From contig OZ076409.1 of the NCBI GenBank assembly GCA_964187785.1, forward strand, positions 23,004,001 to 23,068,000: DNA of 64,000 bases, written 5' to 3'. Numbering within the stretch: the first letter of the stretch is position 1; each line of letters starts with the position of its first letter. Position numbers and translations under genes: made by a program. This DNA is from Amphiscolops sp. MND2022 (taxonomy: Eukaryota). A model generated the notes under the pieces. It saw nothing but the letters and a program-made list of their open reading frames with translations, was not told the origin of the DNA and made no database searches. Of the stretch, positions 16,042 to 61,600 are shown piece after piece.

Positions 16042-16056
16042 AAAAATGAGTTTCTA

Positions 16057-24837: not shown

Positions 24838-25150
24838 TCCTCCCCGGGTCGTAGTTTGTCGTCCTCGACAAACGAGAGAGGACGTTCACATCTTGGTTGC
24901 CACCATCCAGTGATCCAATATATATAATTCGATAAGGAAAACAAACTCACTTTGAATAATGAAACTTGTGAATTTGCATGCATATGAAAAGTCGAACCTA
25001 TTTCAAATTAAATTTCGAAAGGTGTCAAAATGCAAAAAAATTGTGCAAACAACCTTAAGTATACATAGACAACCTCCCAAATCAACGACCAATCAGAAAA
25101 GTAATAAGACGCCCGTTATGTACCGGGATGTTTTCCGCTGCAAATGTAAC

Positions 25151-29146: not shown

Positions 29147-29309
<163 letters not shown>

Positions 29310-29497
29310 GAGTTTCTTGTATCGAATAAGCAAAAAAACAACTCAAACAAAAATCGTCAAAAGGATGCTCGAAAACAGAGAGATAAGGTATTTGTTGAAA
29401 AGCGTAATTCATTCGAAATCCAATCTATATTACTTGCGTAGCTCTGTTTTACTCCCAAATTGCAATCTCTCAAAAAAATGAATTTTTGTTTGGAATA

Positions 29498-30173
29498 TAT
29501 TGAGCTGCCTATAAGATGCACCCTAAATTTGACAGAAACTCCGAGCCATGAAGTTTTTTTATTGAGCTGCCTATAAGATGCACCCTAAATTTGACAGAAA
29601 TTCCGAGCCATGAATTTTTGCAGTTTTTATTGAGAAGCAGTTCAAATTTTGAAAGCAGCTAAGACTTCATAAATTTTATCACGATTTTGATGGAAATAAA
29701 CCTCAGTAACATATTTTTTTCGAAGTAGGGCTTTATTCAGCGTGTCATTTCACTAACGGTGATTAAATAAAATACTTACTTGAGAAACCTAAACGTGAAA
29801 ACAAAGTTAAGTTTGAATTTCAATTATTGAACTGCCATATATGGCCATATAAATTCAAACTTTACTTTGTTTTCACGTTTAGGTTTCTCAAGTAAGTATT
29901 TTATTTAATCACCGTTAGTGAAATGACACGCTGAATAAAGCTCTACTTCGAAAAAAAATATGTTACTGAGGTTTATTTCTATCAAAATCGTGATAAAAAT
30001 TATGAAGTCTTAGCTGCTTTCAAAATTTGAACTGCTTCTCAATAAAAACTGCAAAAATTCATGGCTCGGAATTTCTGTCAAATTTAGCGTGCATCTTATA
30101 GGCAGCTCAATAAAAAAACTTCATGGCTCGGAATTTCTGTCAAATTTAGGGTACATCTTATAGGCAGCTCAAT
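29498..30173. mobile_element. Foldback/palindromic element with ~320-bp arms
   Basis: 29498-29820 is the near-perfect reverse complement of 29850-30173, with a ~30-bp spacer. Each arm starts with a 61-bp tandem duplication (TTGAGCTGCCTATAAGATGCACCC...). Confidence 0.9.
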
Positions 30174-30366
30174 AAAATTCAATTGATTCGATGAAGTTTC
30201 AATGTATGGAAGTTTCCCAACGAGTTATGTAAAATCATGATAAATTTGCTAAATAAATACACAAAAACATGCGAAAAGTTCAAGAACTTTTCAAGTTCAA
30301 CCAAAGTATAGGCCGAAGGTGCAACCACAGATCACAGAACTTTGACCTCAGGTATAAGAAACAGAT

Positions 30367-39600: not shown

Positions 39601-40744
39601 CAAAGAAAATGGTAGTGCCGCCAAAAGGATTGAAGAATTCACACACTAATATTAGCAGTGCAAAAATGAAATTTTCAAGAAACGAGAAAATTGATTTGTG
39701 GATTCTTCATTTTAATGATAATCTATGCTGCACGTGTAACATCATTGGTGTGAGGATTCTTCGCATTTTGTCATTTCTTGTTTACTTTTCTGAATTCTTG
39801 ATTACTTTTCTGAATTCTTGAACACTTTTATGGATTCTTCTAAAAATATGGTAATTAAATCTAACTTCTTTCTGGATTCATCAAAAACTTATCTCTGTTC
39901 TTTATAACAATAACTGTAAATAAAATCGTACAATCAACGGAGAATCGACACAACCTGATTGAATTAAGATTTTTTGATAATTTTGTCTATTGTTCTATTT
40001 GAATTCAAACATAATATCTTTTTCAAATATCTCTAAACGACTCTTCTAGAGCAAAGTAACGACTCCATGAGTGTATGAACAACAGCTAGTTCATTCTTCA
40101 AATGACTGGCCACGACTGACGACCACGAGTGGACAAGTAGACTTCAGACATAGTTTCACGTTTCAATGACGATTCATTTTTGTCTAGAATTGTGCTATTG
40201 GAAATCAAACATTTTATATCCAAAGTTGTTTTGTTCATAAAGTAAATTTTATTTCAGTTTAATTTTTTTAAAATTCAGACTTTTTTCATTAAATCTAAGA
40301 CTCCATGAGTGTACGACTCCATGAGTGTATGAACAACAGGTGAGCAATATTTTTATGATTAAATTAAACCCCAGGGCGTATTCCTAAATACCTAAAAATG
40401 ACTAAGAAAAAATGCAAAATTATCTAAGTGAACAGTTGCAGTTTTTGATTCTAAATCATTTGACTCTGATTCTGGACTTGGAACTTTTTTGCTACTAGTG
40501 TTTCTGAATTAGCAAAATAACGACTCCATGAGTAAAAACAGATGCTAAAGAACATTTTGATGGTGCTCAAAGAAAACACGGGTATTGACATAAACGTTAG
40601 TTCATGCGTGTTGTTGATGATTAAAATTAATAACGATGGACAGATCATGGTTCATGTGTGTCATTGACAGTCAAAATTAAAAAAAGAATATGTGTCAAAA
40701 TTAAATAAATCAGTTTCAGAGTAAAATGTTGCAACCCATCTTCG

Positions 40745-42214
40745 TTATAAATTGTCCACTGCTGAGTTATGTCGAATGATGTCCCTGTACGTAGTGACCG
40801 GATAAACTCCACCAATCAATGTGATACAGCACTTGATGCACGACACGGCAAATGCTTTTTTGATCAGAAACCGCATCGTTTTGATGTATTTGTCACTTTG
40901 ACTGTAAGTGCCAGCCTTTCGGTCCCACAACTTTCCCAACACTGAATCCCATGATTCATGGCACCCCTTTTCATTTGAGGGAATTGAGATATTGAATGTC
41001 ATATCTCTGTTATTCTCAATTCCGAGGGCTGTCGTGGAGAGATCATCAGCCAAACACAAGATCCCTGCATATCCAGACCGCGACGATAGGGCCAGTCCCA
41101 CAGCGTTCTTCACCGCTGCAAATAAGGAACACACCTTACTGATGGGGTGTTCGACGCTGCCAACCAAATTTTCATTAGTCTTTTCGCTCAAGAAGTTTTC
41201 TTCGAAGAAAACAACTCTGTTCCAGGGCATTGTGATGGAAATGTCCTCGCATTGCTCTGACACCATTGTCACGAGAACAAGTGGTTGCTCTTTCTTCCAT
41301 ACCAGCTTCAGGCTGCGAATGATGGATGATTCTCCACAGTGATCCATCACTTTCCCACCTTCATGCAAAATCCCATTCACACATGGGAAATAGATGAGTG
41401 GAACTTCGTCGGTAGTTTTCTAAAGCAAATGAAAACATCTACTATTTACCACAACAAACAGATTTCATGCTTTTGAACAAAGTTGCTTTCATGCTTGTTG
41501 AGCAAGTTCATGCTTGTTGCTACATTTTATAAATCAGCGCGTAACTTGCATAGATGTTACACTACTTTGTACACTTACGGGTATCATTGTCATCATATCG
41601 ACCGGTTCTTTCTTCTTGGAGGAAACTGCAATCTTCTGCTTCTTTGTTGTCGGCGGCTGACTATTTTCAGTTTCGTCAATCTCATCGAGCCTATCATCGC
41701 TCTCGAACTCGTTTGTTTCAGGGACTACTTGAGCTGCTAAACTCCGCAGGTCGTCGTACTTTACTGTCAGAGTTCTGAAAGTGGTTGTCGGTTCTTCCAG
41801 TTTGCCCAGGTCTTGCCATTCTCTATACTCGTCTTCTTCAAATATCTTCATTTCACTCAGTACCGTGTCAATAATGAAAACAAATCCTTGTTTGATTTCA
41901 CCTTCTTGAATGAATTTGACTCGATCACCACGGGATTGGAATTTGGGCTGATAGTCAAGCAAAATTTTGTTCGCTCGCCTTCTTTTTTGGGGAAGTGTCT
42001 GGGAGGTAACTTTTGTCTTTCTAACATTCCACTTCTCCGATGTTTTTCTCACAGTGCTATTGATTTGTATTTTTGATTTTTCCTTTCCAAATTCTTTCCA
42101 GCGAACAACTACTTCCCACTCCCCGATAAATTCAATTACTTCTGCCTGCCACCAAATGTAGCATTCGTCAATAGCATCAACAATTTCGTTAAGTTTAAAT
42201 TGCTTGGACAACAT
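40745..42214 (-). CDS. Two-exon gene (42214-41579, 41419-40745; 436 aa) with N-terminal Tudor/Agenet-like (Royal family) domain
   Basis: GTAAGT donor and CTTTAG acceptor join in frame without stops. FKLNEIVDAIDECYIWWQAEVIEF...VVVRWKEF fits the Tudor/Agenet beta-barrel with aromatic residues; C-terminal half unrecognised. Confidence 0.72.
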
Positions 42215-42610
42215 TTCGAATTAGTTTTTTTGCTATAAATACTGGGTATTTTGTAGTCAAATAGATTGAGTTTGCATAGAGTTGAATTAAAATCAAATAG
42301 GCTGAAGTCATATGGAGGTGAACAAAATTTTAACAGGTGAAAACTCGAGTCTCAATTTGCGTTCAATCTGCCACATGTGCAAAAAGTGTTAATCACAACC
42401 CGCGACGAGTTTAGACTCGTATTCTCACTTTAAAGACAGTGTGGAACTCAATTTTTGCTCATACACCTTAGTCCCATTTTAATTATTGACTAAACTTGCA
42501 TTACATTTCAACCAACTCATCAACAATGGAAATCTGGATTGATAATTCAATTTCCATCAACAATATTCAATACATTGATTATAACCTAATCGATCAAATT
42601 TCTGGAGTCA

Positions 42611-45600
42611 ATGAGGGTAATTAAGAGAAGCTACGAAATTAACGAATCATGTCATTTGTGGAATATCATTGAAAGCTGAAGATTTCGTCATCAAGTGGAA
42701 AACAAATGGCCAGACAAGACACAAGATTTACATCGAGGTATGTTTTTAATTACAACACTTTCAATTTCAACTTCCATAGTAACATTTTAACAACCTATTT
42801 GAACTTCTAAAGTATCATTTTGAAAACCCCAGGAATATCCAATTGTTCTAAGCAGCTTTTCTGTACCGAAACCATTACAACTCCAGGAGCATGCATCTTT
42901 GTAGAATATTTCTAAACTAACAACCTAACGACTCCGGGAGCATTGCTTTTTCTAAAAATACATTTTTTGTCAGGCACACGTGATGAAATTGATTTTGTTG
43001 AGTGGTGGCAAAAACGTACCATGGACAAACGCTCGAAGGGAAATCTTAACCAAACTGATGGGCGAAGATCTGTTTCCCACTGGAAACCAAGTGGTCAAAC
43101 CAACACCGCTGAGAGAAGTGGTACACAGAACAATTGGTACCCAAACTGGAACCGATGAGTCACTTGAACCCGTGAACAATCAATCCGCAATGCAGACAAT
43201 TCCACCAAAACCCGAAAACAACCAGTCTACGACTTACGTAGTTCCGCGAGGGAAAAGAGTAGTTAGACTCCAAAAATCTCCAATCGCCTATTGGAAGTTC
43301 GTTTTGCGCCATGCAAAAAGGAACAAAGTCGACTTCAACGCTCTATTAGACGTCATCCTTCACTTTTCCAGAACAAAACAGCCAGAGTACTTAAAATCTG
43401 TCATTAAAAAAACCTTCCCTAACTTTCAGTCGCGAGAAACACTAATCTCCAATGTTGCGGTTTCTCTCAAGTCAGGGAAAGCAGAAGACTTGTTATTTAC
43501 TCTATCTTCAAATTTGAAAATCAATAAACTAGGAAAATTCCAAAATCTCGTACCATCATACCGTGCAGTCCAGAGATACCAGAGTCAGATCATGGAAAAT
43601 TTTATCTCGGTGTGTCAGCCTGAAGCCACCTTTTCTGGTTTCCGTTGTGATCTGGTGTCATGTGTCAAATTTGCTGCATGGATTCTTTACGAGAGAGAAG
43701 AAATATCTGAGCTCAATATAGATTTGTGGGGTGATGGTTGTGAAATTGGTGGCATTGATCACACAAGACTGTGTTTCAGAATTTTGCAAGACTTCTCTGA
43801 TAAAATTACAGCGCAATCATCAAGTATAACATTTTGTTTCAGTGGTAAGTTGTGGTTGTTTTTACTGATTCTGTAATTTCCAATTGTCACTTAGTAAGGT
43901 AATTTTATTACTGTAAAGAATCCACAAAAATAAACGAACAATTTTAGTTTAAATTCGTGAACCACTACCTTCAATTTGCACTCTCGCATGTTTAATTATT
44001 CAGTTATAGATTCTTAACACCATGTATAGTAATTGGTCGCTCGATTCTACTGCTTAATTTACCGTGGTACCAAATCTAAAACAGTCGAGGGGTGTCAAAC
44101 GTCATTTGGAACATCAAACGTAATTTTTGTTTTGATTTGTTAAGCATTCCGAGACAAGGACAGCAGGTTCGTACTGGAGCAAAATTTGGGACCAGAGATA
44201 GCTGGAAAACAAGAAACGGGGTGGCTGTACAAGCAAACAAAAGAGTTGAGTACACAAGGGGCGGTGGTCACCTATTCCGGCGACAATCTTTTTCTGTACC
44301 GTCTCATATTGGCTATAGACAGCGATGCATCGAACCAATACCCATCAGACTTGGCGCTGTATGTGGGATCTGAAAATATCCTCCCACAGATGTGGATGAC
44401 TATACTGGTATGCGTCACAATCTGAAAGCTCCGTTCAGAGAAGAAATCCCACAAAGCTCCCTTGTGTACCTTGAGGATATAAGATGTGTCATGCCAGATG
44501 TAACGCAACGCACATGATCACAAGGTGCGTAGAGAGTGATCTCCGCAAAGCTGCACAGAAAATAGTGAACGAAAAACCAGTGTACAAAGTGTCCCTACAG
44601 CGATTGGAAGAAAACTGTACTCGAAGGGCATTGAAAAAACCCAAATTTCAGTTTGACCTGCAAGTGAAAGGATCTGAATTGAAAAAAGGAATCGTTGGAC
44701 CGGTATCGCTATCCGGAACATCAGCGCTAGTAGCTATCGCTGATAAAAAGAATTTGAACAAGACGTTCCGAATCTTTTTGAAAATGTGTGGGGAAATGAA
44801 ATCCTTTTTGAGACGAGAGACAACACAAACAAACAAAATGCGCGAGCTGTCAGCAATGCCTTTTCAGTTCTGAAATCCATGCACCCACAAATAGCAAAAT
44901 CCGACACATTCACAACAAACGACTGTGCAAATCTCTTGCAGCATAGTTTGAATAAATGCACTATTATTTTGCGGGCATCCAAACACGGTCTAAACACGGA
45001 GCAATTCAAGTTTTGGTCTGAGTCATATTATCAATCATCGTTGCTTCTTTTTTCCGGGAAAGACGGACTCACCCCCTACAAACTGAAAATGTTGCTAATC
45101 CCACAGATAATGGACGCAGGGTTTGTTCGGAGTCCATGGCATCACATGTGTGAAGCGATGGAGAAGTCGAACCATCATGCTCACAAGGACTTCCAAACCA
45201 AAACAATGAGAGGCGGAGGAAAATTGTACAACCCTGATCCTTTGTTCTATGAAGGTTTCTTTTCCTACTGCCATTACCTCGACATAGTTTCAAAACACAA
45301 AAAATACCTGTGAGCGATACATTTGACAAGCTTCAGAAACAATTCGATCAGAAAACAACTTATTCCGAAATATGCAAAAATGTAGTCAAGCCTGCAATAA
45401 TAGAAATAGGTGCCACTCGAGATTCAAGTAGGCTGCTGAGTGGACTTTGTTTTCACGTGGTTGGGCACTTTACTGGAACGACTGGAAAAGCTGTGGAGGA
45501 TACAATTACTCGTTTGGGGGGGGAAGTACTGAGTAAAGACAAAGCTCTTGGACTATCGAAGCGCCATTCCTCAACCCCAATATGTTTTGTAGTAGTGAAA

Positions 45601-46051
45601 AATGACACTGAATTGCTCAAGGCAACGAAGAGTGAAATCAGCTCCGCTTCTGGATCAGACAGCGACACGTGTTCATCGAACACTCAACGAAAAACAGCTC
45701 CAGCGAAAATAATGAAAAAGGCAACAAATCAAGGATCAGTCAGGATAAGAATTTGCCGCCACCGATTTCAAGTTTTTGAGTGTAGCATACATTCAAGATG
45801 TTGAGAAAAAAGGCTGTGTTTTGGACCCTTCCGAATACTTGTTTGATAAAGGTGCGATTGAGCGAGCATGTGTCAAAGACCAACGTCCATTATTTGAGAG
45901 ACAAAGAAATCCCGAAATATCAGACCTTGATTACAGATCATTGATTACTTCATTGAAAATGTCAAGAAAGAGAGCAAGAGAAGAAGGACAACCAGACGAT
46001 AAAATTGCTAAACTCTTCAGCATTCAGGCAAAAAATGTCGGGGAACTTTGA
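42611..46051 (+). pseudogene. Spliced DDE transposase (RAG1/Transib/CMC-like) with C-terminal BRCT-like domain; about 5 frameshifts
   Basis: LWGDG (43733), YSGDN (44282), PDVTH and LTPYKLK...CEAMEKSNH (45152-45163) parallel RAG1 SCDG, DALH and ITNYFHK...SEGNESGNK. Introns 42738-42973 and 43845-44144. LSGLCFHVVG...ITRLGGEV...YIQD...LDPSEY is BRCT-like. Confidence 0.8.
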
Positions 46052-46697
46052 TTTGTTTGAATATGGATAACAAGTATTTTACTTCGAAAAGAAATTTTTT
46101 TACGATTTTATCGTTTTCAAAAACCACAGCTTGCGTTTTAAAAGCGCACTAGAATTGAGAAAGTAACTGTTAAACATGGTTTGCAGAATCAATATATCAA
46201 TATTAAACCATTTTTAGTTATTGTTTAAATGTTTTGTACACTGATTTTAAACAAGCGTTGAATTTTGTAGATTCTTCAGATCGCAATAGCTCAGCTCGCG
46301 CTCAAAATGCGCTGTAGAATTGAGAAACTATTATGCCTGGTTTGAAGAATCTATATATCAATGTTAAACCATTCCTAGTTATAATTTGAAGGTAATATAT
46401 TGCATTGTTTTTGAGCAACTGTTCAAGTCAGTTCAGCCAATTCTCAGCTTTAAATATATTACGTAACGACTCCGCGAGCAGATACAGTTCACAAAAACTT
46501 TTCTATACCAACTAGGTAAAAACTCCAGGATCTTATTATCTTTTAAAAACGAATCAATTGGTAAACTTTGAATTTTAACCGAACATTTATTCCGAATACT
46601 CGGAGAGCAATCAAAATAGTATGGAACACATGGATCGAACAATCATTTAATTGAAAAGTTTTTCAAAATTCTGTTTTTTTTCAAATGGGAGGTAAGT

Positions 46698-49124
46698 TCA
46701 TGGATCGAACAATCTCCTCGCTTCTTCATCTCCATAGTCGAAGCGAAGTTCCTGGAATGCCGCAATGTCAGTCTTAGCTACCATGACCAGGACGTCTTTG
46801 TTCTGTGCTATGTTTACTAGCACCGGTTTCACATTCGCTTCCTTGGACGACTTGTGATTGATTAATCTCCCAAGGCACCGGTTGTTAGGATGTTCGCCGC
46901 AGATTTCCTTGGAAGCGTCGACTAAGTGTTTTTGCGAAATTTGGAAGAGATACTCGCTCTGGTTGCCGGGTATGTCAAGGTACTCTTCGTAGCTCATTCC
47001 TTTGATCTCTTCTCCGTGATAGTCGACAAGGATCTCTCCTTTCTCGACATTGGTTGTGGTTACTACTCCGTGACCCAAACCTTTCACGTGGACGTCACAG
47101 ATTGATGGCCATTGCTGTGACTTAATTCGTCTGCCAAGCGCCCTCTTGAAGTTATCTGTTTGTTCGTTATGGGGTGGCAGAAACAAGACATCGTGGCGAA
47201 GGGAAACTGTTGGAGTCTGTAGTGCCTCTGGATTCAATCGATCTGTGACAATCTTGAACGTCTGAAATTATTAGAACAACATAAAATTGTTATTCAAATG
47301 TTCTTTTATTCGCTTCGCTTTAGCTATTATATTGCTGGTAATTTTTTTTGTCCAGTGTAACTGAATCTTTCACATGCAAGGTAGCCGTTACTTTACTGAA
47401 GAAAAAAATCATTCCGTCAAATGCTGCTAGTCAAAAGAGATACCTTTTTCAGGTCTTCTTCAGTGCTCCATGAGTTTTTGGCGTAAAAGTCTATGAGTCG
47501 CTGCCTGGTGGGTTCCGTGTAGTTGCGTTTGCTGCCACAAAACGTTATAAATTCTTTCGCTCGCAGAACTTGGCGGGCATATCGCTGCGCATTGAGAAGT
47601 CTGACAACGTAAGGACCCAGCTGTCGCTCAGTGACGTTGTAAATTGCAGCCCAGGTTTTGTCAACACCTGCCCAGATCTCAGCAATGGCCTGCGTTTTCT
47701 TCATGAATCCGGCATTGCTGGATGTAGGCAGAGGAAGCCTTTCGTTGACACACCCCAGCAGTATATCATCCACTGTCTCCCGGGCACTCTTTTCCATCTA
47801 CAACAGAGTGAGAACGCAATTGTAAAGCAACACAACTGCGGAAAAATTTGAATTGTGTGATGATAATCTGACAAAAGAGATGTTACATGAGAGAACGAAA
47901 ATGATACTTCTGAAAAATCCCGCACTCGTTACTTGAAACAACAAATTTTACAACTTTGAAGCCCTCAATGCTCCTAATGGTTCAATTTTTACCTTGTCCA
48001 TGAACTCCTCAGCAATAGATCTGGGGTTGAAGTTCGCATTCCCTTTTGAAGTTACAAAGAAATGCTCCGTAGCAACCTCTTCGACGCCATCTTCGTCCCG
48101 TTGAAATGCTCTCGTCACAGTTCTTGGCGATTTCCGATGGAAAGTCGGCCTCACATTGAGGTGATACACCCGCATCGCGTTCACCACCCATCGTTCGATA
48201 CGGTGTTCCACTCGAATAGTGTTTCCTAAAACGAACTCAGTTCATAGTTCTAGATTTGGGTATTTATTTTGCCTTACATTCAAATTTATATTCTCATATC
48301 AACAATTTATACGTCCGCATTCTATCTTGTTTAAACCGTGAAATTATAAAATATCTTCGTGCCATATGCTACTAATTTGATATTTGTACAGAACATCCTA
48401 CGTCGCTTTCAAGTTTTAGAAAAAAAGGTCCAGTATATTTACCCAAAGATGGTTCGAGAATCAATTTGCAATGGTCACAGTCGCTCAAGTCATCAAACTG
48501 TATTATAACTTGCGCGACGGCATGCACTGTCACAGCCAAAACGCTTTTCGTCATCACTGTCACTGGCTCGGCATACATGTAGAGGTACGTGCTAATGCCG
48601 TGGAAAAGTGTTAACTGTTGCTGGTACGTCAGCGCTCCACATTTGTCGGAAGTTTCTATAACCCCCTCTAACGTCTTTTTAATTTGGGGTCCGACTTTTT
48701 CTGACCACTGCAGTCGTGGCAATTTTGGTTCTGACTCTAAACACGTCTTAGCAGGAAAGTCGAGGCTGCGCTTTAAGGATGTGCTTGTAGAAAGTGCACT
48801 CGTTTCGTATTGAGTTTTTCTGACTTGATCGCTCGAGTGTGTAGAACTTGATGTGCTGCTTTGAGTGAAATACGGGGGAGGGGTGTTTTCGCTTGTTGCC
48901 AATATTTGAGAAAAGTTGGGCGGACAAGTGATCGTAGGGGCCATATAGGACTCGTGAAATGAGAATTTACTTTGACTTCGATGAATCGACGCAGGAGTGC
49001 TATGAAAATGAATTTCATTAGGGGTTTGTGGAGGTTGTAAAGGAGTTAGATAAGGACTGGACTGAGTATATTGCGTGAAGTCGCTATTACAAATTGTGAT
49101 GTTTCTCAGAGTTTGTTCAGACAT
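46698..49124 (-). CDS. Four-exon gene (49124-48443, 48225-47993, 47797-47444, 47261-46698; 610 aa): degenerate tyrosine-recombinase-like region + C-terminal SET domain (KMT5A/SETD8-like)
   Basis: All GT-AG junctions are phase-compatible and stop-free. SET motifs GLGHGVVT, DYHGE, YLF, GRLINH, ELRFDYG. YHLNVRP...HFFVTSKG resembles a YR core, but no HxxR...Y follows. Confidence 0.85.
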
Positions 49125-49180
49125 TATTATGAAATTTTAGTTTACTAAGATATCAGAGGGGAAAGCAAAAAGTTTGAAAA

Positions 49181-49369
49181 TTGAGCTGCTGGGTACTGCA
49201 AGAGTAATCGGTCTAGAATAATGAGGAATTTCTTTTGGATTGTTTGAGCTGCTGGTTATTGCGATTGTAATCAGTCTAAATGATGGAAGAATTGATTTTG
49301 AATTGTTTGAGCTGCTGGTTATTGCGAGAGTAATCGGTCTAAATGATGGAAGAATTGATTTTGAATTGT
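49181..49369. repeat. 63-bp tandem repeat x3 just upstream of the SET gene
   Basis: TTGAGCTGCTGG...GTAATC.GTCTA...ATTGT at 49181, 49244 and 49307. Confidence 0.9.
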
Positions 49370-50423
49370 GTATTTTTAGTTGTTAAATCAATTGGAAAAA
49401 ATCGAACTCATTTTTGACGCCTATTAAACTGCCCATGATGCTGCATTTATTAGAAACGTTTAACTAATTTCTGAATTACATTCAGTCTGTCAAAAAGTAC
49501 TCAAGTGAAAACTGAGTGCAAAATTAATCGATCGCATTTGGTAGCATTTAAAAATTTGATGTTAAGAAGCTGATTATTTTCAATTAAGCTTTGACACCCC
49601 TTGATTGTATTAGATTTGGTACAATGGGTTGATTTCAAACTACACGGTGAATTACGCTGTAGAATTGAGGGACTAATTACTATATATGGTGTGAAGAATC
49701 TATAATTAAATGATTAAACATGCGAGAGTACAAATTGAAGGTAGTGGTACACGAATTCGAACTGAACTTGTTCGTTTATTTTTGTGGATTCTTCACAACA
49801 GGACTGCTATGAACCTACGTTCGTAAACTTAGTACAAAAACAGTTTGGTTTATTGAATGTTTGAATTATCGAATACAAAAATAACGATAACCTATAATTC
49901 CATAAACCTTCAACTGAAAATTAAGCTTATGGTCCCTAAACAATTGCTCCCGGAGTCGTTACAAAATAATGGGAAGGGTATAAAAAAACTTTATTTGATA
50001 AAAGCTTTGTCAAAAATCAATCATCACTCAGAACAAAATAAAAATAATATACAATTGAACGATCAGAGCAACGAAAGATCAAAGTCGTGTGAGTATTTAT
50101 TTGTGTGCAATACATCAGCATATAGGGGATGGTAGCGCAGTTGATATTTAACATGGGTTTGTAGTGAAGCTAGACGCGTTGTCTACCACCGGATCGATTC
50201 TCACATAGACACTGTTTGGCGACTCTATACAGACCACTCTGTATTCCCCACATGTCGATTTGGTAAACGACATCGTTCCTTTTCACAGCGATTGGACGGC
50301 ATAATTGAAGATCCAATAAACTGCGCTACTGCATCCCTTTTTGATGTGAAAAGGATAAATCAGTTGTTGATCGGTATTTTCCTTTACAGCGATAGGAAGT
50401 CACAATTGAAGATCCACTGCATC

Positions 50424-50750
50424 CAGGGGTGTTCAATAAATAATTATGAGTAAAAATAATTGAAATGAATAAAATAAAATAATTTACTTCTACACTCAAA
50501 TGAACAAAAATAATTATTTTTGAACCTGTTAAAAGAAAAATAATTATTCTTGAGGTAACTAAAACTAACTAAGAACGTTTAATTCAACATATCGTCACCC
50601 ATATAAATTCGAATATACAGAAATCTTGAGCTAATTTCCAGCTTGAGCTATAAATTCTTTTGACAAAAAATATATTTTTTTCTAATATGAAAATAAAATA
50701 CTTGATTTTAAGGCAACAAGAATATTCGAAAAAAGTATTCAACACCCCTG
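50424..50750. mobile_element. hAT-type MITE (copy 1)
   Basis: TIRs CAGGGGTGTTCAATA / TATTCAACACCCCTG; perfect 8-bp TSD ACTGCATC. Confidence 0.9.
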
Positions 50751-51922
50751 ACTGCATCCCTTTTTGATGTGAAAAAAAGTTGATCGTGGTTATTTTCTTT
50801 CACAGCGATAGGAAGGCACTTTTGAAGATCCACTGCATCCCTTTTTGATGTGATGCATCCCCATTCGTTATTTTTCACTGCGATACGAAGGCAAAATTGA
50901 AGGTTCAATACGCCACAGCATCCTTTTTTGATGATGAAAACAGTGATGTCCATGTTCCATAACTAAAAAGAAATGAAAACTATTAAATCTGTAAACTGGG
51001 TATACTGAATTGATTTCAAATTTTACGGCGAATTGCGCAGTAGAATCGAGGAACTAATTACTATACATGGTGGGAAGAATCTATAATTGGATAATAAAAC
51101 ATGCGAGCGTGTAAATAGAAAGTTATGGTCCACGAGTTCAAACCAAATTTGTTCGTTTATTTTTGTGGATTCTTCACAACAATAGGACAGCTATGAACCT
51201 ACGTTTGTAAACTCCGTACAAAAACGGTTTGAATTTATTTGTATTTGAATTATCGAATTACAAAATTAATGGTAACCTATGATTGCATCAACCTTCAACT
51301 GAAAATTAAGAATATGGTCCCTAAACAATTGCTCCCGGAGTCGTTACAAAATATTGGGAAGGATCTTTTTTGCATCAAAAAAAATGAACTAATCGAACTC
51401 CATTAAAACGTACGAAAAAGCCACAAAATTACCTGACATCACGTATTCGGAAGGATCCAAAACACAGCCTTTTTTCTCAACTTCTTCAATGTATGTCGCC
51501 TTATGGTTTTGAAAAGCTATCAATCAAAAAAAATATTCTTTGATAAAAGAGGTTGTTATCAATCAATCATTACTTAGACCAAAGTAAGAATAGTATACAA
51601 TTGAACAATCAAATTCGTGTTAGTATTTATTTGTGTGCAATACAACGGCATATAGGGGATGGTAGCGCAGTTGATATTTCACATGAGTATGCACTGAAGC
51701 TAGACGCGTTGTCTACCACCGGATCGAACCTCACATATACACTCTTTGGCGACTCTATACAGACCATCGTTTCACTTCACAGCGATTGGAAGGCATAATT
51801 GAAGATCCAATGAACTCAACTGCGCTACTGCATCCCTTTTTGATGTGGAAAGGATAAATCAGTTGTTGATCGTTATTTTCCTTTACAGCGATAGGAAGGC
51901 ACAATTGAAGATCCACTGCATC

Positions 51923-52271
51923 CAGGGGTGTTCAATAAACAACTTTACCTAAGAATAATTGAAATGAATAAAATAAAATAATTTACTTCTACACTTAAAT
52001 GAACAAAAATAATTATTTTTGAACCTGTTAAAAGAAAAACAATTATTCTTGAGGTAACTAAAACTAACTAAGAACGTTCAATTCAACATATCGTCAGCCA
52101 ATTAAATTCGAACATACAGAAACAGCTTTTGTTGATATCCGTTTTTCGCTGAGAATACAAATATTTCTTTTAACAAAAAAAATAATGAAATTGTTTATTT
52201 TTTCACTATGAAAACCAAATAATTCATTTTTAGGCAACGATAATTATCTAATAAAATATTGAACACTCCTG
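51923..52271. mobile_element. hAT-type MITE (copy 2, same site in the duplicated unit)
   Basis: CAGGGGTGTTCAATA / TATTGAACACTCCTG; same ACTGCATC TSD. Confidence 0.9.
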
Positions 52272-52905
52272 ACTGCATCCCTTTTTGATGTAGAAAAAGA
52301 TCAGTTGTAAATTTCCTTCACAGCGATAGGAAGGCACTTTTGAAGATCCACTGCATCACTTTCTGAACTGCAAAAAGATCAGTTCTTTGTTGGTGCTTTT
52401 CACAGCGATAGGAAGGCATTTTTGAAGATCCACCGCATCTTTTGATGTGGAGAAAGATCAGTTGATCCTTGTTAATTTCTCTCACAGCGAGAGGAAGGCA
52501 CTTTTGAAGATCCACTGCATCCCTTTTTGATCTGAAAAAAGATCAGTTGATTGTTGGTACTTCTCAATAAGATAATAAATGGGATATAATTGGATAATAA
52601 AACATGCGAGAGTGTAAATCGAAAGTATTGGTCCACGAATTCAAAACAAATTTGTTCGTTCATTTTTGTGGATTCTTCACAACAATAGGACTGCTATGAA
52701 CATACCTTTTAAAACCTCATGCAAAAAAGGTTTGCAATTTTGATTCAATTGAAAAAAAAAACAAATGAATAAATACTTTGCAATTTTGTAACTAATGAAA
52801 AAATACAATGATCTTTGTAATCGCGTTGCCTAAGCTCGGTAAAAAGAATTTTCGAGTGGTTGCTGTATCTTCAATTATCTTGGAACATATGGTACTGTTC
52901 GATCT

Positions 52906-53400
52906 CTTAGTTGAACAATTTGGGACCATGTGTTCAATTCCCCCCAGGTACACCTTGCTGCGAATTTCCCCCCCGAACACGAAAGCACATTTTGTTCTTG
53001 AATAAAAATATTTCACTAGTAAGAGAATATTATATGAAAGTATATACTCAGAGGGTTGCCTCTACAACTGTTTGGACTCTTCAGGTAAAAAAATTACCAA
53101 AATGTTTTGATATTATTATCCAAAATAGCAGAAATTTGCGTTTTAAACAAACTAAAATTGTATAAAAAGGCCCCGAATTCAGCGCAAATTTTGTCCGCTA
53201 TAAAATCAAATTAGCAACTTTTAAATGACAGTCAATGTAATGGATAGGATTATGTCGACATCAATTATTATATTGGACCAAAATTTCAACGCAAACTATG
53301 TCGACATAATGGTTTTTGAACCTTCTGTCTTATTTCCTCCCCCCGCCGCAGTTTGAGGAGGGCGGAATTGAACACATGGTCCACAATTTGTTCAACTAAG
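52906..53400. mobile_element. MITE-like element with ~36-bp TIRs
   Basis: CTTAGTTGAACAATTTGGGACCATGTGTTCAATTCC vs GGAATTGAACACATGGTCCACAATTTGTTCAACTAAG; TSD not resolved. Confidence 0.7.
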
Positions 53401-53603
53401 TAGGTATCTTGTCAACCTATTGTTGATCATTGTTCTTTTAACCGCTACCACATTGCCCCGCCGGCAATTGACGGTTGGGAATTTCCATTAATATACTAAT
53501 ACAAGTAGTAAAAAGAACAACTAAATTTGTTTATGTTTATTTGGTACAGTTGAAGTCATGCGCTGATGGAGCAATGGCAATGACGTCCCTGTACTTCATG
53601 AAG

Positions 53604-56600
53604 TCAGACTGCAGCCAAGGCCTGACTTCGAAAGAGCGGGTGGTGAACTTTTTTTCTGTAAGGCTCCATTCTGAAACAGTAACATGCAGTCGTAACATCT
53701 GGGAGCAAGTGTCTACGGGAGGGGAACCATTGGATGACTTGGAAATTCGGGAGCATACAAATTGAAAGAAGATTTTTTTGAATGCAGATTTTGGACAACG
53801 ATTACTTTGAAGGTGCAACTTCCTTTGAATGCAAAGGTACCATTTTATTCAAAACCAATTACCTCTTCGGTGGGTTCGGAGCGGCTGCGGAGTGGCTGCA
53901 ATCTCTCGAGTGACCAAGGTGAGACTGTGTACGGCCTCGCAGAGATCTTCTTCATCATACGGTGGCTGGTTGCATGGGGGGATGGCTGGTTGGAAATTGG
54001 AACCGACCATGATCATCGGTTTTCAATTCAGGACAGGGGCCAAGTTCGTTTTCTTCAGGGAGACGGTCAAGAAACTTCCTCCTGAATATCGTTCCTTGCT
54101 TGGCTCCTCGTCGAACACAGCCATGTTGAAGGCAGGGAACACCTGTAACAAACACAACTTTTATCTTAACAATTTTATTGGGACCTAAATACTATTGAGA
54201 TACTGTCAGGATACATATCTACCCCTCGTAAAATTTATCAATTTTGGGATTGCTCACAACAACAAAACAACGAGCATGTTTGTTAGAATACTTACTTCTG
54301 TAGTGGAGGCTTCTCCGTTCTTCATGTGTTCTGCTACTTTTTGGAAGAGGTGCCTGTACTCATCACCCAAGTAGTTGGGGCGCAGCTTGCGGTAGTTGTA
54401 CAGCAACACACTCCACACTGTCGTCAAATCGGGATATCTGGAATACATAAATATTATACTCAAGGTAACAATTTACAAGAGAACAATTGGTGGAGGGGTG
54501 GTAGATGTGACACTTATAATGTTCTATTGAGTATGCATTAATATTTCCCAACTTCAAACTTATGTTCCCTGACATATTGCTCCCGGAGTCGTTACAAAAC
54601 TTTCTGCATTGTTTAATGTCCTTCACTTTCTCGTTTCAGCTATATAGATGGTAAAGGAAGTATAGTGATGTTGTATATTTTCTATATATAAAACTTTACC
54701 GCGTATCTTCTTCAATGTCGAAGTGGGCATCCACAATTAGTCTACTGTGCCCAAAACTCAGGAAATTAGCACCGAGTGCCATTGAGTCGCCGTGGGTAAG
54801 GACACAGTGAATCCACTTTGAAGGCAGAACAATGGCATCACCTGCCCTTGCATGGATCCTGTGACAGCCCCCCTCTAACGTCTGCAGGTCTCCAAATGAT
54901 GTTGTTCTAAATATCACACATAAAAAACACAAATGAGGGGTTTTGATAGAATTCAGTTGAGTGTTTATTTTCAGCATTACCCGAAAAATGACAATTTTTT
55001 TCTAAAGAGATTGTCTACTTTCTATACACTAAACGAACATAGATTTTAGGGAAATGACGTGAAGTAGGATGTTTATACTTACAGGCTGCGAGGGTCTTTC
55101 TCACTGTACTGCTGAAAGAGTTGCAAGTTCTTCTTTGTTGGCTCAACAAGCCAGAAGATTTTCTCACCGAGCAGTACCACGTAGAAAACTGACGTGCTTG
55201 CGAAATCAATGTGCCACGGGGTGACACATTTGTCGTTGGATAGCAGCAGGTAGTTCCACGTGCTCTCCGTCAAGTACTCATCGCTCTGAGAACCTGCCAG
55301 ATTTGACTCAACATAGCGGTCGATTGCAGCATTTCGTACCGCAGTAGGTGGTGAAAACATCTAAAAACGAATGTACTTAAACTACCTAAAATGTGAAAAT
55401 TGATTTCTTATATCTTAAGAAGAAAATTTCGCAGAGTCGTTTACATATGGGATTTGGGCACCTATAAAAATTGTCAGTGACTTTCAAAGGTGTTTAAAAA
55501 TTATTTTTTTTTCACTTTACTGTTTAACTAGTTTCGATTTTATCTAAATATCTCATTACCGCATGTTGAAGGGTGGCATCTAGCACGTTGACAGGAAAGA
55601 GTCCTTCACGGGCTGCTTCTGGGCCGGAACGCTGTTCCGCCAGATTCTCCTCTCTGGTCAAACTTCGTATCTGCAAATACATTTTGTACTCTAGTTCAAA
55701 TGATTTTTTGTTGAATGTGAAAACGCAGTAGAATTGAGACAATAGTGACTAAATGTTGCGAAGAATCTACCACTGGATAATAAAACATTGAAAATTTAAT
55801 TTGAAGGTAGTGGTTCATGATTTTAAAGCTACACAAAATTTACATTTTTTGTGGATTCTTCGCAAAAATGTGATTTGAACAATTTTGTTTTGGCTGCGAG
55901 AACGCAGTAAAAATGGGACAATAATGATAAAACACGTTGCGAAGAATCTACCACTGGATAATAAAACATTGAAAATTTATTTTGAAGGTAGTGGTTCATG
56001 ATTTTAAAGCTACACAAAATATACATTTTCGTAGATTCTTCGCAAAAGTATGATCTGAACAATTTTGTTTTGGCTGCGAGAACGCAGTAGAATTGGGACA
56101 ATAATGATAAAACACGTTGCGAAGAATCTACCACTGGATAATAAAACATTGAAAATTTAATTTGAAGGTAGTTGTCCATGATATTTCACAACGATACAAA
56201 TGAAAACTTTTGCGGATTCTTCACAGCGATAAATATACGCGTTTGTGTGCGTGCTCTTAAATCCAGGAAAGTTTTTCTGTAAACCAACCGCACTTTATAG
56301 TTTAAAATCTCACCTCGTTCACTCTGGCCGACTTTGCAGAAATGGGGACATCCGGGTTGGCAACATGCTGCAACAAATGTCCTGCTAGAGGCAGAAACTG
56401 AGTTGCCTTGTCCTCCGGAACATGGGGTATGACGAGGCCTTCTGCGTTGTCCCTGGCACCTCTCCACAAGATGGGGAAATCATGGGCCAAATAACAGAAG
56501 ACTTTCTTCGTCTGATCTTCCACGGCCGCATTCCAAACAACGCACTTTGGGACGGTGCTCTGACGCGTCCCCTCGATGTGCTCGTAGTACCTAAGAACAA

Positions 56601-57460
56601 AAAACAACTACTTTTTTCCTAGTACAATTAAAGGTCTTTATTATTCTGGCACGGATTAAATATTCATTTTTATCTACCTATAGGTATGAAAAGGTATTTT
56701 GACATCTGTTGTATTCTGGTAAGGTCAGCTATAGTTTTAACAAAAAAAGTATTCTATTTGACTTTCATTTCTTTCAAACTTGCAATAACATATTATGCCA
56801 AATAATACTTGAGTACTCTATGTATTCTGTAGCATAGCTATCAACTCGAGTTTCCCTCACCTGTAAGTGCCGTCCTTAGCCGACTTTCTGGGGAACCGGT
56901 AGAAGTTCATGTCCTTGAACCTATGATTCGGCACTCGCTCCAGATTGCACAGCAGATTGCTCCGGGAAGAAAACTGCTGTTCACAGCCCTCACAGCTGGT
57001 TGGCTTGAGTTTCCCCGTTACAGTCTCTGGAATAAAAGAAAAACTTCAAAACAACTTCAAAACATGGGCGTTACGTTTCTATACCGCAAGCACAACTATC
57101 AAACTATCATTAGTTTCTCAAAAGTGTAAAAGATACTTGTAACCATATATAGCAAGACCGTTTCTCTAGGCAGGTTTGTAATGACATCGGTAACTTACTG
57201 TAGTTCTTCAGAGCTGGGAAAAGACCTTGAGCCAATTCACTTGCCCTCTTGGCACAGCTCTGGGTCTGCTGATGACGTTTGAGGGCATCTTTTGTCGACA
57301 CAGGTTGTAGACACAGGTTGCAAGTGAAGCTACCACTTCCGCTGGCCACCTCCGGCACCGGCTTGGATCCTTCGCATTTTTGGACGTGTCTGTTGTAATT
57401 GAACAACCTGGTCGACTCATAAGGGCACTTCGGACACTTCATCTGGGGCTTTGGCGGCAT
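53604..57460 (-). CDS. Multi-exon C2H2 zinc finger + JmjC (KDM2/KDM7-PHF8-like) gene; exons 1-7 intact, tail possibly decayed
   Basis: Exons 57460-57199, 57026-56861, 56590-56314, 55670-55560, 55360-55083, 54906-54700, 54437-54296, 54142- are phase-compatible. TPWHIDFASTSVFY...GEKIFWL and LPSKWIHCVLT...GANFL retain H-x-D...H and the 2OG lysine. In-frame TGA at 54023-54025 in exon 8. Confidence 0.88.
55720..56225. repeat. ~180-bp tandem repeat x2.8 in a JmjC intron
   Basis: GTTGCGAAGAATCTACCACTGGATAATAAAACATTG at ~55755, 55936 and 56116. Confidence 0.93.
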
Positions 57461-58371
57461 TTTCTGGTTTATGAAAAAAATTATTTTAGTTTTTTTAATT
57501 TGTTTCCTTATGATCTGTTTCCATATTTCCTTACATTTATCGCGCTCATGGAGCCGTTACAACCACCTGGCTAAACATTAACTTGTTGTTCTCTATCCGT
57601 TGCGCACATGGAGTTGTTACATCAAACTAAACATTTGTTTTTAGTCCTGTTGTCATCCTGCTCATGGAGTCGTTACGAGGGATTCTCAAATAACATATGA
57701 GCAATTAGCATAAAAAATAGTTTCAAATAACATAAAATTGAAATGGGTTTCACTGGACATAAAAAGAAAATTGTTTGCGAGAAAGTTTCAGTGGTCAAAA
57801 GCATTCAAAAATCAGAAGACTCCCTGAAAAAAGTGTGGAAATTACAGATTAAATTTTCTGAGTTCGATTGTTTAACCGGGTATTCGGATTTATTTTTATT
57901 TGAAACTAATTGCATTTTTATGTTATTTGACTCTAATTTTGTTTTTATGCTATTTGCACTTATGCTATTTGGTACGTAATCGTTATTTGAAACTAATTTC
58001 TTTTTGTACTGTTATTTGTTCATGTTATTTGCACTTATTTTCTAAACATTTGTGTTATATCTTATTTTCATCGCGCTCATAGAGTCGTTACATCTGACTA
58101 AATGTTTTTTTCATGTCCTATATTCATCGCGCTCATGGAGTTGTTACAAATGGCTAAACGTTTTTTAAACTGGAACAGCTGCAAATTTTGGGACGGCAAA
58201 GCTTTATTGTACCAAAAATAAAACCTGACTTACCTTACTCGAAGATTGAATTTGATTGTTCAAATTGAAGTTCTGCAGTCTTCTTGTTATGTTCAGATTG
58301 ACGACTGATTGTCCGCAGCAATGTTTGTTAAATAACGTTATTGAATAAAGCGAGGGATTCCGAACACCAAT

Positions 58372-58692
58372 TTCTGCGCGTCATGGTCACGTGACAAAAA
58401 GTTCATCTAATTCCAAGTACATGTAACGATTTTGGATCAAGCGAGGTATTTTGTTTACGTGACTCACTCAATTCTGCGAGTCATGGTCACGTGATAGAAG
58501 GAAGAATAAGAATAAGAATGAAATTTTAAAGATTTGGAAATTTTAGAGATTTGTATAGAGCGAGGGAAGAAATGAGTGAAAAAATGAATGAATTCACGAA
58601 GAAATTTCAATTTCGTAAATCTTTTTACGAACCATGTCGGGACTGAACGAAATTTTCATCGACCGGAACCAAAAGATCTGCTGTGACGTCAT
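58372..58692. promoter_or_regulatory. Candidate promoter motifs upstream of the JmjC gene
   Basis: TTCTGCG.GTCATGGTCACGTGA (E-box) twice, 100 bp apart; TGACGTCA at ~58684; possible 5'UTR intron ~57464-58232. Confidence 0.35.
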
Positions 58693-61600
58693 AGGTATAT
58701 GTATTGCATTAACTGTAGTTAACGAATGACTTCGTTCGCTCACAACAATACAATCTATTTGAACGCTCCTGCAGTTGTTACAAAAAAAACACTTTTTAGA
58801 AATGTTTTAGTTTTAAACTGGTAAATGTTTTAGTAATAAATAATATAGGAATGTTTCATTACAATACGCTTTTTTAAAGTTGGCAAAAAGGGGGGGCATC
58901 TATTTTAAACATTCTACCTAAACGCTCCTGGAGTCGTTACAAAATTATTTGTTTCATTACAAATTTGTATTTATTTTAAACATTCTACTTAAACACTCCT
59001 GGAGTCGTTACGAATTTTTTATGATCAGAGAGAGTTTACGCAATTTGTTATACAGGGCAACGTATTTTTTACATGTAATAATACGCGCACAAAACTTTAT
59101 ATATGTGTCCAATGTAACGGCATAATGGGGGGTGGCGCAGTTGATAGTTCCCGTGTGTATGTAGTGGAGCTTGATGCGTTGTCTACCACTTATTCGATCC
59201 CCACCCATAAACTTCCAGGTGATTCGATGCAGACTACTCTGCATTCCCTCCTCCACTGTATTGATTGAGCAGAAGAGTGTGTTCCGCTTCACAATGATAG
59301 CAAGAGCCCGCATGGAAGGATCACTGAGCCACTGCATCCCTTTTGATGCACGGGACAAATAGAAAGTTTTTTTATTTTGACAAACATGGGGGGTATTTAT
59401 TTGAAACTTTCTACTTAAACAATTCTGAAGGCGTTACAAAATCATTTGAACCATTACAATTTATAGGAAGTTTTTAGACGGCAAACAGGGGATTTACATT
59501 CTGAAAACCATTTCAAATTATTCAACAAAATAATTCATATACAAACGGAAGGATCCACAAATTAATTTTCTTTCGTTGAATTATTTTTGGTTGTGAATTA
59601 TTGGTTGTGAATTATTGGTGGTGAATTAATATTGGTATTTCGGTGAATTCATACGAAACGAAGAATCCACAAAAATATAGTACCTCCAATAAGTGACCTA
59701 ATCAACGAAGAATCCACGCCAACTAATAATTGCTTAGTGAAGAATCCACACAATTTCAAGAATCGAGAGAAACGAGAGAACTTTCATTTTGGCGATTCTT
59801 CGCAGGTTACACACGGTATTAGTGCAAGAATCCAGAAAAAAATTTCACTCCACTTTTGTCAATTCTTGAAACGCATGTGTTATAATGCAGTTCAAGAATC
59901 CACATAAGACTACAACAGATTTGTTGCAGTCACCGTTTTTCCCCGATTGGCGTCGTAATGGATATTCCTTTCTTTCAAACGTGAGAGTAACATTGGCCAG
60001 CAGCGAAATTGTGAAGTGCCATCGGGGACAAAAGTCGAGTCCGAGAAATCACGTGAACAGCAAAAACCATCGGAGAGGTCAGACTTAACACTTGGTACGA
60101 AGGTACATTGGTCTATGGAAAAAAACTATCCACCCAAAATCAACTTATCATTCCTGATGTGCTGCCTGATGACATGTTGGTTTTTCTGCAAGGCAGGACA
60201 AAGGTCCCTATTAACAATCTATACAGAACACGTGTCAAACCTGAACGGTGTTTACCAACTCCTCCGGACGAAACAAAGATGGGACCTTATCATGACCAAC
60301 AAATGGCAGTTCTATCAACTCTGAAGCATATCGCAAGCTCATATGACCATGTAGGCACACGTGAACTGCCAAAGACCCAACTGAGCTCAATATTGCCAAT
60401 TAAAGTCAGTTCAAATATCCCTGGAACTCGAAGAAAGGATCATGTGAATCACGGTCTCTTGAGTTAATGAATTCGAATTCTCTTGAAAACTTACGGTTAG
60501 AAACACTCAAACAATCGCATGATGCCATCGCTGAGTTCAAGCGCATTGTTCACGAGGGACAACATTGTTTAGATATAGCCGCTGAGGTAACTCACCTAGG
60601 TGATGAAATGTCTACGGAATTCGCCCAGCAATTGACAGTCATGAATCATATAGATAGACAAGCATTACTTTACGAACTCGAGTTGCTCGATAGGTTGATT
60701 CAACAATTGCAATACGAGCATCTTAGACGAACTTCTGCCAGAAAGCCGCAGTGTGATGATTGTGGGTCTCATTGGCGTCTCAATTAGACTTGCGATCATG
60801 GACGCCATCAGTTACTTGACAATTATCTCAACAAAACAGTATCATTGAAGAACTTCAGTTCCAACCTGCACCCGGATCCGAGACTCTGGTGCTACCCACC
60901 GATTACAAAATTCTGGGTCCCGGCGTTGATATTGTCCTCGCAGACATCTGACCTGAAATACACAATGCCACGCCTTCGACATGAACGCCAGCTACTTAGA
61001 CTCAAACACAGGAGCTCCGCGGGCTCCTCACTTAGAAACTTCGACCATCACGTTTGTTCAATTGCGGCCAAACGAATGTCATGTTTCCTTTCACGCAGAG
61101 AAAAATCCGCATCAGCATATGTTGCATCAGCATCAGCATCAGAGAAAATGTTGCATCAGCATAGTTTGCGATTTTGCTTTGACGATCCATCTCATATTCA
61201 TTTGTTGAATAGACGTCATTCGCAGTCTCGAATGCAATGGTTATGTGCGAAAGGCAACAAAATACCTACCACTGATGTTAGAAATACTCCATTCCGCGGT
61301 CACATCTCTATCGTGCAACTACGGATGACTGATTAAGTTCTTGCAAAATCAAATCTACCTCACCGACAACTTTCTCGGCAAAGGGGGAGAGGGGGTGCCC
61401 TCAACCCCAAATTCATACTTTGACAATTCTTCATTGACGTATCTGTTGACTTTGGCTAGCTACTCTCACTTCCCTGGAACACAGTCCTTTTTTTCAACGT
61501 CTTTCTCAACGTCTTTATCAATCTCGGTTGCTGCCAAGTCTATCGAAAGTAACATCTGCCAAACGTGGTCTACACCAACTTTATCACATTGACCCGCAGT

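Follow-up and report, generated by a model that had tools for sequence, protein, structure and literature searches.

A zinc-finger JmjC gene carried by a RAG1-fold DNA transposon of Amphiscolops sp. and its predicted targeting to the transposon's own dispersed motif

A 64,000-nucleotide stretch of the Amphiscolops sp. MND2022 genome (GCA_964187785.1, contig OZ076409.1, positions 23,004,001 to 23,068,000; hereafter the window, numbered from its first letter) contains a 20.5-kb cut-and-paste DNA transposon, one of whose genes, here called ZnF-JmjC, joins zinc fingers to a JmjC domain of the histone demethylase type. The best explanation of the data, to which we give a probability of roughly 60%, is that the fingers dock on a short motif dispersed along the copies of each transposon family and that the JmjC domain erases repressive methyl marks there, which would let these elements escape silencing family by family. 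The gene is cargo of the transposon, and that this cargo is under selection is virtually certain; we infer that the fingers bind, that the JmjC is catalytically active, which mark it takes off and that the element profits. The element, assigned to family A, was delimited by the features below.

39494..59960, no strand assigned: whole DNA transposon, family A, 20,467 bp; four other copies share the exact ends, one internally deleted
39494..39515, plus strand: left terminal inverted repeat (TIR), 22 bp, beginning with CA
59939..59960, minus strand: right TIR, inverted partner of the left end
39492..39493, plus strand, and again 59961-59962: 2-bp target-site duplication (TSD), of differing sequence in 5/5 family A copies

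CA..TG termini with a TSD were found in 5/5 family A copies and also in families C and H; none was seen at the flanks of B2. The 22-bp TIR had 245 exact matches in the 1.07-Gb genome, and a reversed control had 0.

ZnF-JmjC runs along the minus strand in nine exons, from the ATG at 57460 to the stop codon at 53537, with GT-AG introns in matching phases.

57199..57460, minus strand: exon 1, with the ATG, finger 1 (57374-57436, C2HC, helix R-1 N+3 R+6) and finger 2 (57254-57322, C2HC)
56861..57026, minus strand: exon 2, with finger 3 (56923-56994); R114-H115 reads C-N here, a change private to the window copy
56314..56590, minus strand: exon 3, N-terminal part of the KDM2/7-type catalytic region
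55560..55670, minus strand: exon 4
55083..55360, minus strand: exon 5, first half of JmjC, with Y309, L311, T319, H322 (55211-55213), D324 (55205-55207), F325, Y332 and K339 (55160-55162)
54700..54906, minus strand: exon 6, second half of JmjC, with H398 (54807-54809) and N412
54296..54437, minus strand: exon 7, helical stretch past JmjC
53863..54142, minus strand: exon 8, with a premature stop (54023-54025) followed by the ELM2-like segment (53927-54013)
53537..53670, minus strand: exon 9 and the true stop codon

As read from sequence, the protein consists of three zinc fingers, a KDM2/KDM7-type JmjC domain and an ELM2-like tail, in a spliced frame of 618 codons with a single internal stop, at codon 521. 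An earlier note on this DNA had described seven phase-compatible exons; a single minus-strand gene whose introns are GT-AG and agree in phase was upheld, but the exons number nine and the end lies at 53537. The last intron, from the exon-8 donor GT to the acceptor AG at 53670, was intact in 20/20 copies, and the frame it opens was also kept in families B and C. An end at 53604 was dropped because its acceptor AG was present in just 17/20 copies (lost in 3) and families B and C do not maintain its frame. An initial eight-exon model ending at 53849 was replaced by the nine-exon one, and a THAP reading of exon 2 was abandoned, a C2H2 finger being evident in other copies. The splice junctions and the linkage of the finger exon, both singled out for checking by the earlier note, proved conserved: of the splice sites that could be aligned for exons 1-8 in 24 further copies, three had changed (acceptor CG, donor CT, donor GC) and the great majority were intact, and in families A-E, D2, E2, M and N the finger exons remained linked with those for JmjC. 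Exon 1 matched Pfam zf-C2H2 at 1.7e-7, and the fingers follow the pattern C-x2-4-C-x12-H-x3-6-H/C with base-reading residues at -1, +3 and +6. Where two C2H2-like fingers and a degenerate third had been noted, three fingers are indeed joined to JmjC in one gene, but fingers 1 and 2 are C2HC, not C2H2, and the degeneracy of finger 3 is damage private to the window copy; its first His is missing there only, and other copies have R114 in 23/23 and H115 in 22/23.

The earlier note overlooked the premature stop. The window copy carries an in-frame TGA at codon 521 (54023-54025), where other copies have Arg in 18/20, Pro in 1 and a stop in 1. It deviates from most other copies at 11 codons, including R114C/H115N in finger 3 and R521stop, which cuts off the ELM2-like segment. 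Judged from these lesions, the window copy is probably a decayed member, non-functional or truncated, and what is claimed here for ZnF-JmjC applies to the family and not to this copy itself. Among 18 other copies complete over the stretch compared, 6 were open through exon 8 (3 were left unscored owing to an alignment slip at the ATG), one of the 6 having a deletion in exon 9; this count and the dN/dS values (ratios of nonsynonymous to synonymous change, dN and dS) were computed on codons 1-578 of an earlier gene model. Intron 3 holds a 180-bp tandem repeat (55722-56182, 2.6 copies) whose length differs among copies.

A query with JmjC exon 5 brought up 1126 candidates; 150 were scored and all 150 matched, with identities falling in bands between 99% and 45%, and a second JmjC query gave further bands; close protein relatives were present in protein collections. 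Families B, C, D, E, H and I carried the same transposase and a SET gene. In H and I (L115-L117, L118-L120) these were accompanied by a JmjC with different N-terminal Cys/His regions, lacking the three-finger set. By the Nei-Gojobori method, dN/dS between families A and B was 0.16 for the fingers, 0.094 for JmjC, 0.27 for the tail, 0.14 for SET, and 0.18 and 0.08 for the transposase, at dS of 0.8-1.7; between A and its subgroup A2 (dS 0.15) it was 0.25, 0.12 and 0.49 for fingers, JmjC and tail. Changes private to single copies, pooled over 16 copies, had a dN/dS of 0.58 and included six stops. Many diverged families are present across the genome, and ZnF-JmjC is under purifying selection between them. 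Low dN/dS between families together with private decay is what one expects of genes that work for the master element and degenerate in its inserted copies. Non-coding DNA at 49556-52922 aligned with family B in inverted orientation at 80-94% identity despite coding dS above 1, indicating recent exchange between families.

The family A motif is RCTCnnRGAGTYGTT(AC). Its 10-base core occurred 11 times in the window, all within the element, where 0.27 were expected. Twelve fuller copies were located as follows.

40056..40072, minus strand: family motif
40517..40533, minus strand: family motif
42925..42941, minus strand: family motif, in a transposase intron
46463..46479, minus strand: family motif
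49946..49962, plus strand: family motif
51331..51347, plus strand: family motif
54579..54595, plus strand: family motif, in ZnF-JmjC intron 6
57660..58147, plus strand: three motifs (57660, 58075, 58131) upstream of the ZnF-JmjC start, with two looser variants near 57547 and 57604
58924..59011, plus strand: two motifs (58924, 58995)

None of the 12 fell in coding blocks, which cover 38% of the element, and the motifs were scattered over all non-coding parts, not clustered at the element ends. De novo counting gave such motifs in other families too. The nine family patterns (A and B share one) had 5-22 occurrences in their own locus set and 2 stray matches elsewhere. When only the variable part was fixed, offsets 1-3 read CTC in A (12/16), B (13/16), C (23/27), D (6/7), E (16/16), D2 (12/12), E2 (19/21) and M (12/12), and CCC in N (6/7). 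Loci K, O, Q and R carried the motif of their own family (C, D, E and B, respectively), and locus P had a CTC-led motif five times, with C at the base predicted by its finger-3 Asp. The decayed locus L had no motif, and families H and I had no clear motif of this type. A second class of dispersed motif (GAAGAATC core, TGTGGATTCTTC) has many sites in 39494-59960, with 20 in A, 38 in B and 2 outside; the fingers do not explain it, and it may be bound by the transposase or another open reading frame (ORF) product.

The published C2H2 code assigns G to R/K/H, A to N/Q, C to D/E and T to E (PMC12264921). Covariation between finger residues and motif bases was scored on both strands and at all offsets in eight families; B was excluded as a duplicate of A, and P, K, L, O, Q, R, H, I, F, G and J were left out. 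Residues -1, +3 and +6 of finger 1 were R/K, N and R in all families but N, which has R, H and R. At a single placement (GAG; GGG in N) finger 1 fitted 24/24 coded residues, with a score of 23.8 against 4.3 for the runner-up, and the sister families M (Asn, GAG) and N (His, GGG) differed as the code predicts (PMC12264921). For finger 3 the highest score was at offset 7, on the complement of the strand fitted by finger 1, with a permutation p of 0.004 (4000 permutations); no fit was obtained when fingers 2 and 3 were placed on finger 1's own strand. The covariation is strong circumstantial evidence, not proof, because the patterns were post hoc and the families share ancestry. On this comparison the fingers probably bind the family motif, and the earlier guess that they read the element's own repeats thereby gained comparative support.

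The iron triad HxD..H of the JmjC domain is H322, D324 and H398, and K339 is the 2-oxoglutarate (2OG) lysine; other copies kept H322 in 23/24, D324 in 24/24 and H398 in the 22/22 having sequence. The best PDB matches of exon 5 were PHF8, KDM2A and KDM7A (E 2e-10 to 3e-9), which agrees with the earlier description of a KDM2/KDM7-like domain with intact catalytic residues. In KDM2A, H212, D214 and H284 hold the iron, T209, K229 and Y222 the 2OG, and Y199, I144, L201, F215 and N298 lie at the methyl-lysine (PMC11168414). When placed by spacing from the two histidines, 10/10 KDM2A active-site residues checked were identical in the window protein (I144 lies outside the ten), including all seven of the 2OG residues T209, Y222 and K229 and the pocket residues Y199, L201, F215 and N298 (KDM2A numbering). 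The H-x-D..H residues and the 2OG Lys were kept in all 13 transposon loci aligned. Trimethyl-lysine is blocked in KDM2A (PMC11168414), so mono- or dimethyl substrates would be expected. The substrates of PHF8 are H3K9me1/2 and H4K20me1, and those of KDM2 are H3K36me1/2 (PMC4687429). ZnF-JmjC is predicted, with fair assurance, to be an active histone demethylase. H3K27me2 is a further KDM7 substrate, and by analogy with KDM7 the mark erased would be H3K9me1/2, H3K27me2 or H4K20me1. The tail after JmjC has 200 residues with an ELM2-like piece, for which Pfam ELM2 gave E 7e-4 and 20.9 bits in the window (cut-off 21.7) and 28.2 bits in family C; the piece is also present in families B and D. The N-terminal PHD that marks KDM7/PHF8 was not found, the N-terminus being formed by C2HC/C2H2 fingers, nor were the KDM2 marks CXXC, PHD, F-box and LRR found after JmjC.

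The earlier note had asked whether this gene could be the host's only KDM7 orthologue and had proposed a JmjC phylogeny and dN/dS as checks. A separate host KDM7-like gene exists: it is a single spread-out gene with widely spaced exons on contig C4, brought up by a canonical query, and among 5 candidates it alone matched Pfam JHD (PF17811). The JmjC tree had 55 rows, with 8 short or redundant rows excluded and reference rows labelled by motif. In it the host gene clustered with PHD-bearing KDM7 proteins (support 96/95), and the transposon JmjCs formed long branches outside the 98/92 branch of KDM2 and KDM7, their own grouping being weak (59/86). A clade of the host KDM7-like gene with the transposon JmjCs was not rejected (approximately unbiased test, p-AU 0.54, 27 rows). 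A phase-2 intron lies in the same JmjC loop, at most one codon apart, in the host gene and in A, C, D, E, F, J and probably D2, which suggests that the transposon JmjC was captured as genomic DNA from a KDM7-type gene.

The element carries further conserved genes.

42706..46051, plus strand: DDE transposase of RAG1/Transib fold with a C-terminal BRCT; frameshifted here, start and introns inferred, fold taken from the family C protein
46698..47267, minus strand: SET exon, SETD8/PR-Set7-like (Pfam SET 5e-13); upstream ORFs to 49136 are likely more exons (splice-like ends)
40745..42220, minus strand: pair of conserved ORFs, likely parts of a single gene, the first with a tentative Tudor/SH3 likeness

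Compared with three other full copies, the window transposase has five indels, which none of the three shares. Sequence searches of Pfam and PDB gave no placement of the transposase; an atlas and fold comparison did. The family C model (predicted local distance difference test, pLDDT, 76) matched RAG1/Transib by Foldseek at E 3e-6 and aligned with it over 379 residues (Z 15.6, root-mean-square deviation 3.9) at 10-13% identity, with a Z of 11.9 for the BRCT. A 26-row alignment shows D, D and E, and no C(2)C or H(3-4)H motif was seen in it between the second D and E. The TSD of Transib and ProtoRAG is 5 bp, unlike the 2 bp found here. Both zinc motifs are stated for the entire CMCT clade (PMC12730594), and since they were not seen we did not assign the transposase to a named superfamily. 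A metagenome scan with the transposase alignment gave 16 pattern matches, none of them confirmed. The family C SET was closest to SETD8 among solved structures (14 best rows, E 3e-8 to 4e-7), which makes this gene a candidate H4K20 writer. Near the SET C-terminus (46713-46733), two residues ahead of a conserved Tyr, families A, B and E have Phe, and C, F, J and K have Tyr. This position is presumably the SETD8 product switch, and the SETs of different families may, by prediction, write different methyl states. Against family B, the ORFs at 40745..42220 had dN/dS of 0.12 and 0.28; Tudor/SH3 atlas matches of the ORF at 41537-42220 were under 0.9, and its model (pLDDT 43) had no significant fold match. 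Loci F, G and J have a one-finger JmjC near SET, and in F and J an ORF that we take to be of tyrosine-recombinase type from its motifs replaces the RAG1-fold transposase; the pieces tested from G and J had no Pfam match. In abundant elements at L110-L111, L113-L114 and L121-L122, one finger-JmjC gene and a SET are found alongside an ORF of tyrosine-recombinase type, and every one of these elements has dispersed motifs of its own.

In the proposed mechanism the protein would dock on 10-20 motif copies, serving as tags, along the copies of its own family, and the JmjC domain would remove repressive mono- or dimethyl-lysine marks on neighbouring nucleosomes. The transposase and cargo genes would stay expressible while other repeats are left silenced, a logic demonstrated for VANC (PMC5735166). 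The SETD8-like SET on the same element would be the partner writer. By analogy the net effect would rather be anti-silencing than not, with the SET and ELM2-like parts leaving room for a switch or self-restraint. Whether a RAG1-fold transposon lineage carries a programmable kit (finger-guided demethylase, SETD8-like writer, Tudor-like reader), with a tag by which each family addresses itself alone and which coevolves with the helices under the classical recognition code, and the JmjC-SET pair also moving into tyrosine-recombinase elements, we consider evenly balanced.

Several points weigh against the anti-silencing mechanism and its targeting. A SET that writes the mark erased by KDM7 is ill-suited to simple anti-silencing when it sits on the same element, and the substrate cannot be read from kinship because the transposon JmjCs are on long branches outside KDM2/KDM7. 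The recognition code is described as incomplete and error-prone in its own source (PMC12264921). The permutation p for finger 1 was 0.13, because the finger is nearly constant and the value rests on the single M/N change; finger 2 was nowhere informative (p 0.62), and finger 3 misfitted in D2 (-2) and scored 0 in C. Fingers 1 and 3 fit different strands, which would call for a dimer or for a geometry that is not canonical, and the linkers of 17 and 29 residues are not of the short canonical tandem type. The p of 0.004 overstates independence because the eight families are related, and the motif patterns were written after the data had been inspected. The motif shared by A and B may partly reflect DNA exchange rather than selection, and was dropped as proof of selection.

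An unlikely but serious alternative is that the fingers do bind the motif and JmjC and SET form a writer-eraser switch that serves another end than escape from silencing, for instance acting on H4K20me1 or a transposase lysine to time excision and repair or to damp the element, with the ELM2-like tail perhaps recruiting a repressor. The likeness of the SET to SETD8, which monomethylates H4K20, the removal of H4K20me1 by PHF8 (PMC4687429), the BRCT on the transposase, the ELM2-like tail in A, B, C and D and the joint travel of SET and JmjC even in tyrosine-recombinase elements all suit such a switch; the spread of motifs over all non-coding parts, as in VANDAL and not clustered at the ends, does not. 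It is improbable that another element protein, the transposase N-terminus or a further ORF product, binds the motifs as subterminal-type repeats, with covariation reflecting shared descent and the fingers binding protein or RNA. This would accommodate the second motif class (GAAGAATC), the finger 2 misfit and the relatedness of the families, but finger 1 fits 24/24 with the M/N switch in the predicted base, and H and I have neither the finger set nor this type of motif, although transposase and SET are retained there. An idle JmjC or a non-histone hydroxylase, retained as scaffold or decoy, is very improbable: the long branches and the restriction of the JHD match to the host gene favour it, whereas the metal triad, 2OG residues and methyl-lysine pocket are kept in the window protein, the catalytic residues persist in all 13 loci and the JmjC dN/dS is the lowest of the gene. 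A host gene or passively captured Pack-type fragment, suggested by the broken window copy and the one JmjC intron in common with the host gene, is ruled out by the element ends, the TSD, the separate host gene and purifying selection between families with dS above 1.

The proposed targeted anti-silencing by ZnF-JmjC has partial precedents. Yeast Rph1/Gis1 reportedly couple JmjC to C2H2 fingers. Like Arabidopsis REF6, they are KDM4-type with C-terminal fingers, and all are host genes, not mobile. REF6 resembles the present protein in combining JmjC with C2H2 fingers and is a sequence-specific demethylase (PMC12264921). The Arabidopsis VANDAL protein VANC is likewise transposon-encoded and targets short family-specific motifs in its own DNA, which differ between related families; it acts on DNA methylation and has no known catalytic domain (PMC5735166, PMC6719617). 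The present protein instead joins classical-fold fingers to a JmjC of the catalytic kind, and its covariation with the motif is legible at the level of single residues and bases. KDM7/PHF8 and KDM2 share the JmjC active-site and pocket residues (PMC4687429, PMC11168414), and the host KDM7-like gene has one intron in common with the transposon genes; in contrast, the present proteins form a long-branch, transposon-borne group without PHD, CXXC, F-box or LRR and with N-terminal C2HC/C2H2 fingers and an ELM2-like tail. An endogenised giant-virus JmjC in Amoebidium is also multi-exon, borne by a mobile parasite and proposed to counter silencing, but it is viral, KDM4-type and JmjC only, without a targeting domain (PMC11244446). 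Fungal TET/JBP DNA transposons and SET-bearing oomycete HarbingerS and MuDR elements carry epigenetic cargo across unrelated transposon types, but as a DNA dioxygenase or SET alone and with no targeting code; "JmjC" occurs 0 times in the available text of that source (PMC12730594). CMCT-type transposons share the CA..TG ends, 2-bp TSD, DDE residues and RAG1/Transib fold (PMC12730594), and the present elements differ in the C-terminal BRCT, the zinc motifs not found and the low identity to RAG1/Transib. A 2019 review listed three transposon-encoded anti-silencing mechanisms, all in plants, queried this scarcity and called the VANC mechanism unclear (PMC6719617). Our literature search, with Repbase Reports, supplements and most subscription journals outside its scope, returned no transposon with a finger-guided JmjC, and the available text of PMC9406493 held nothing on transposon-borne enzymes.

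If true, the mechanism would be catalytic, sequence-specific anti-silencing outside plants, a mirror of host KRAB zinc fingers, and the parts themselves, a DNA reader and a histone-mark eraser, point to it. At least eight families would supply naturally occurring finger-motif pairs for which predictions go down to single residues, making the host-transposon arms race testable from the transposon side and offering natural compact epigenome editors. With its transposase the element also enlarges the RAG1-fold group by a member in which the usual zinc motifs were not found.

Elsewhere in the window, a long terminal repeat (LTR) retrotransposon occupies 209-16784, with LTRs of about 730 bp and pieces of a gag knuckle, protease and integrase; no reverse transcriptase match was found among seven ORFs scanned, and two ORFs, 6286-7857 and 1695-6011 (1438 aa), are unexplained. 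At C1 16.69 Mb a copy of the DNA transposon sits inside a relative of this retrotransposon. A broken reverse transcriptase of the long interspersed nuclear element type lies at 30948-32863, a near-perfect 690-bp hairpin element at 29490-30182 and a (CTA)54 run at 29147-29309. An 1837-bp direct duplication, almost identical, together with a partial third copy, was found at 17500-20812 and 24095-24917.

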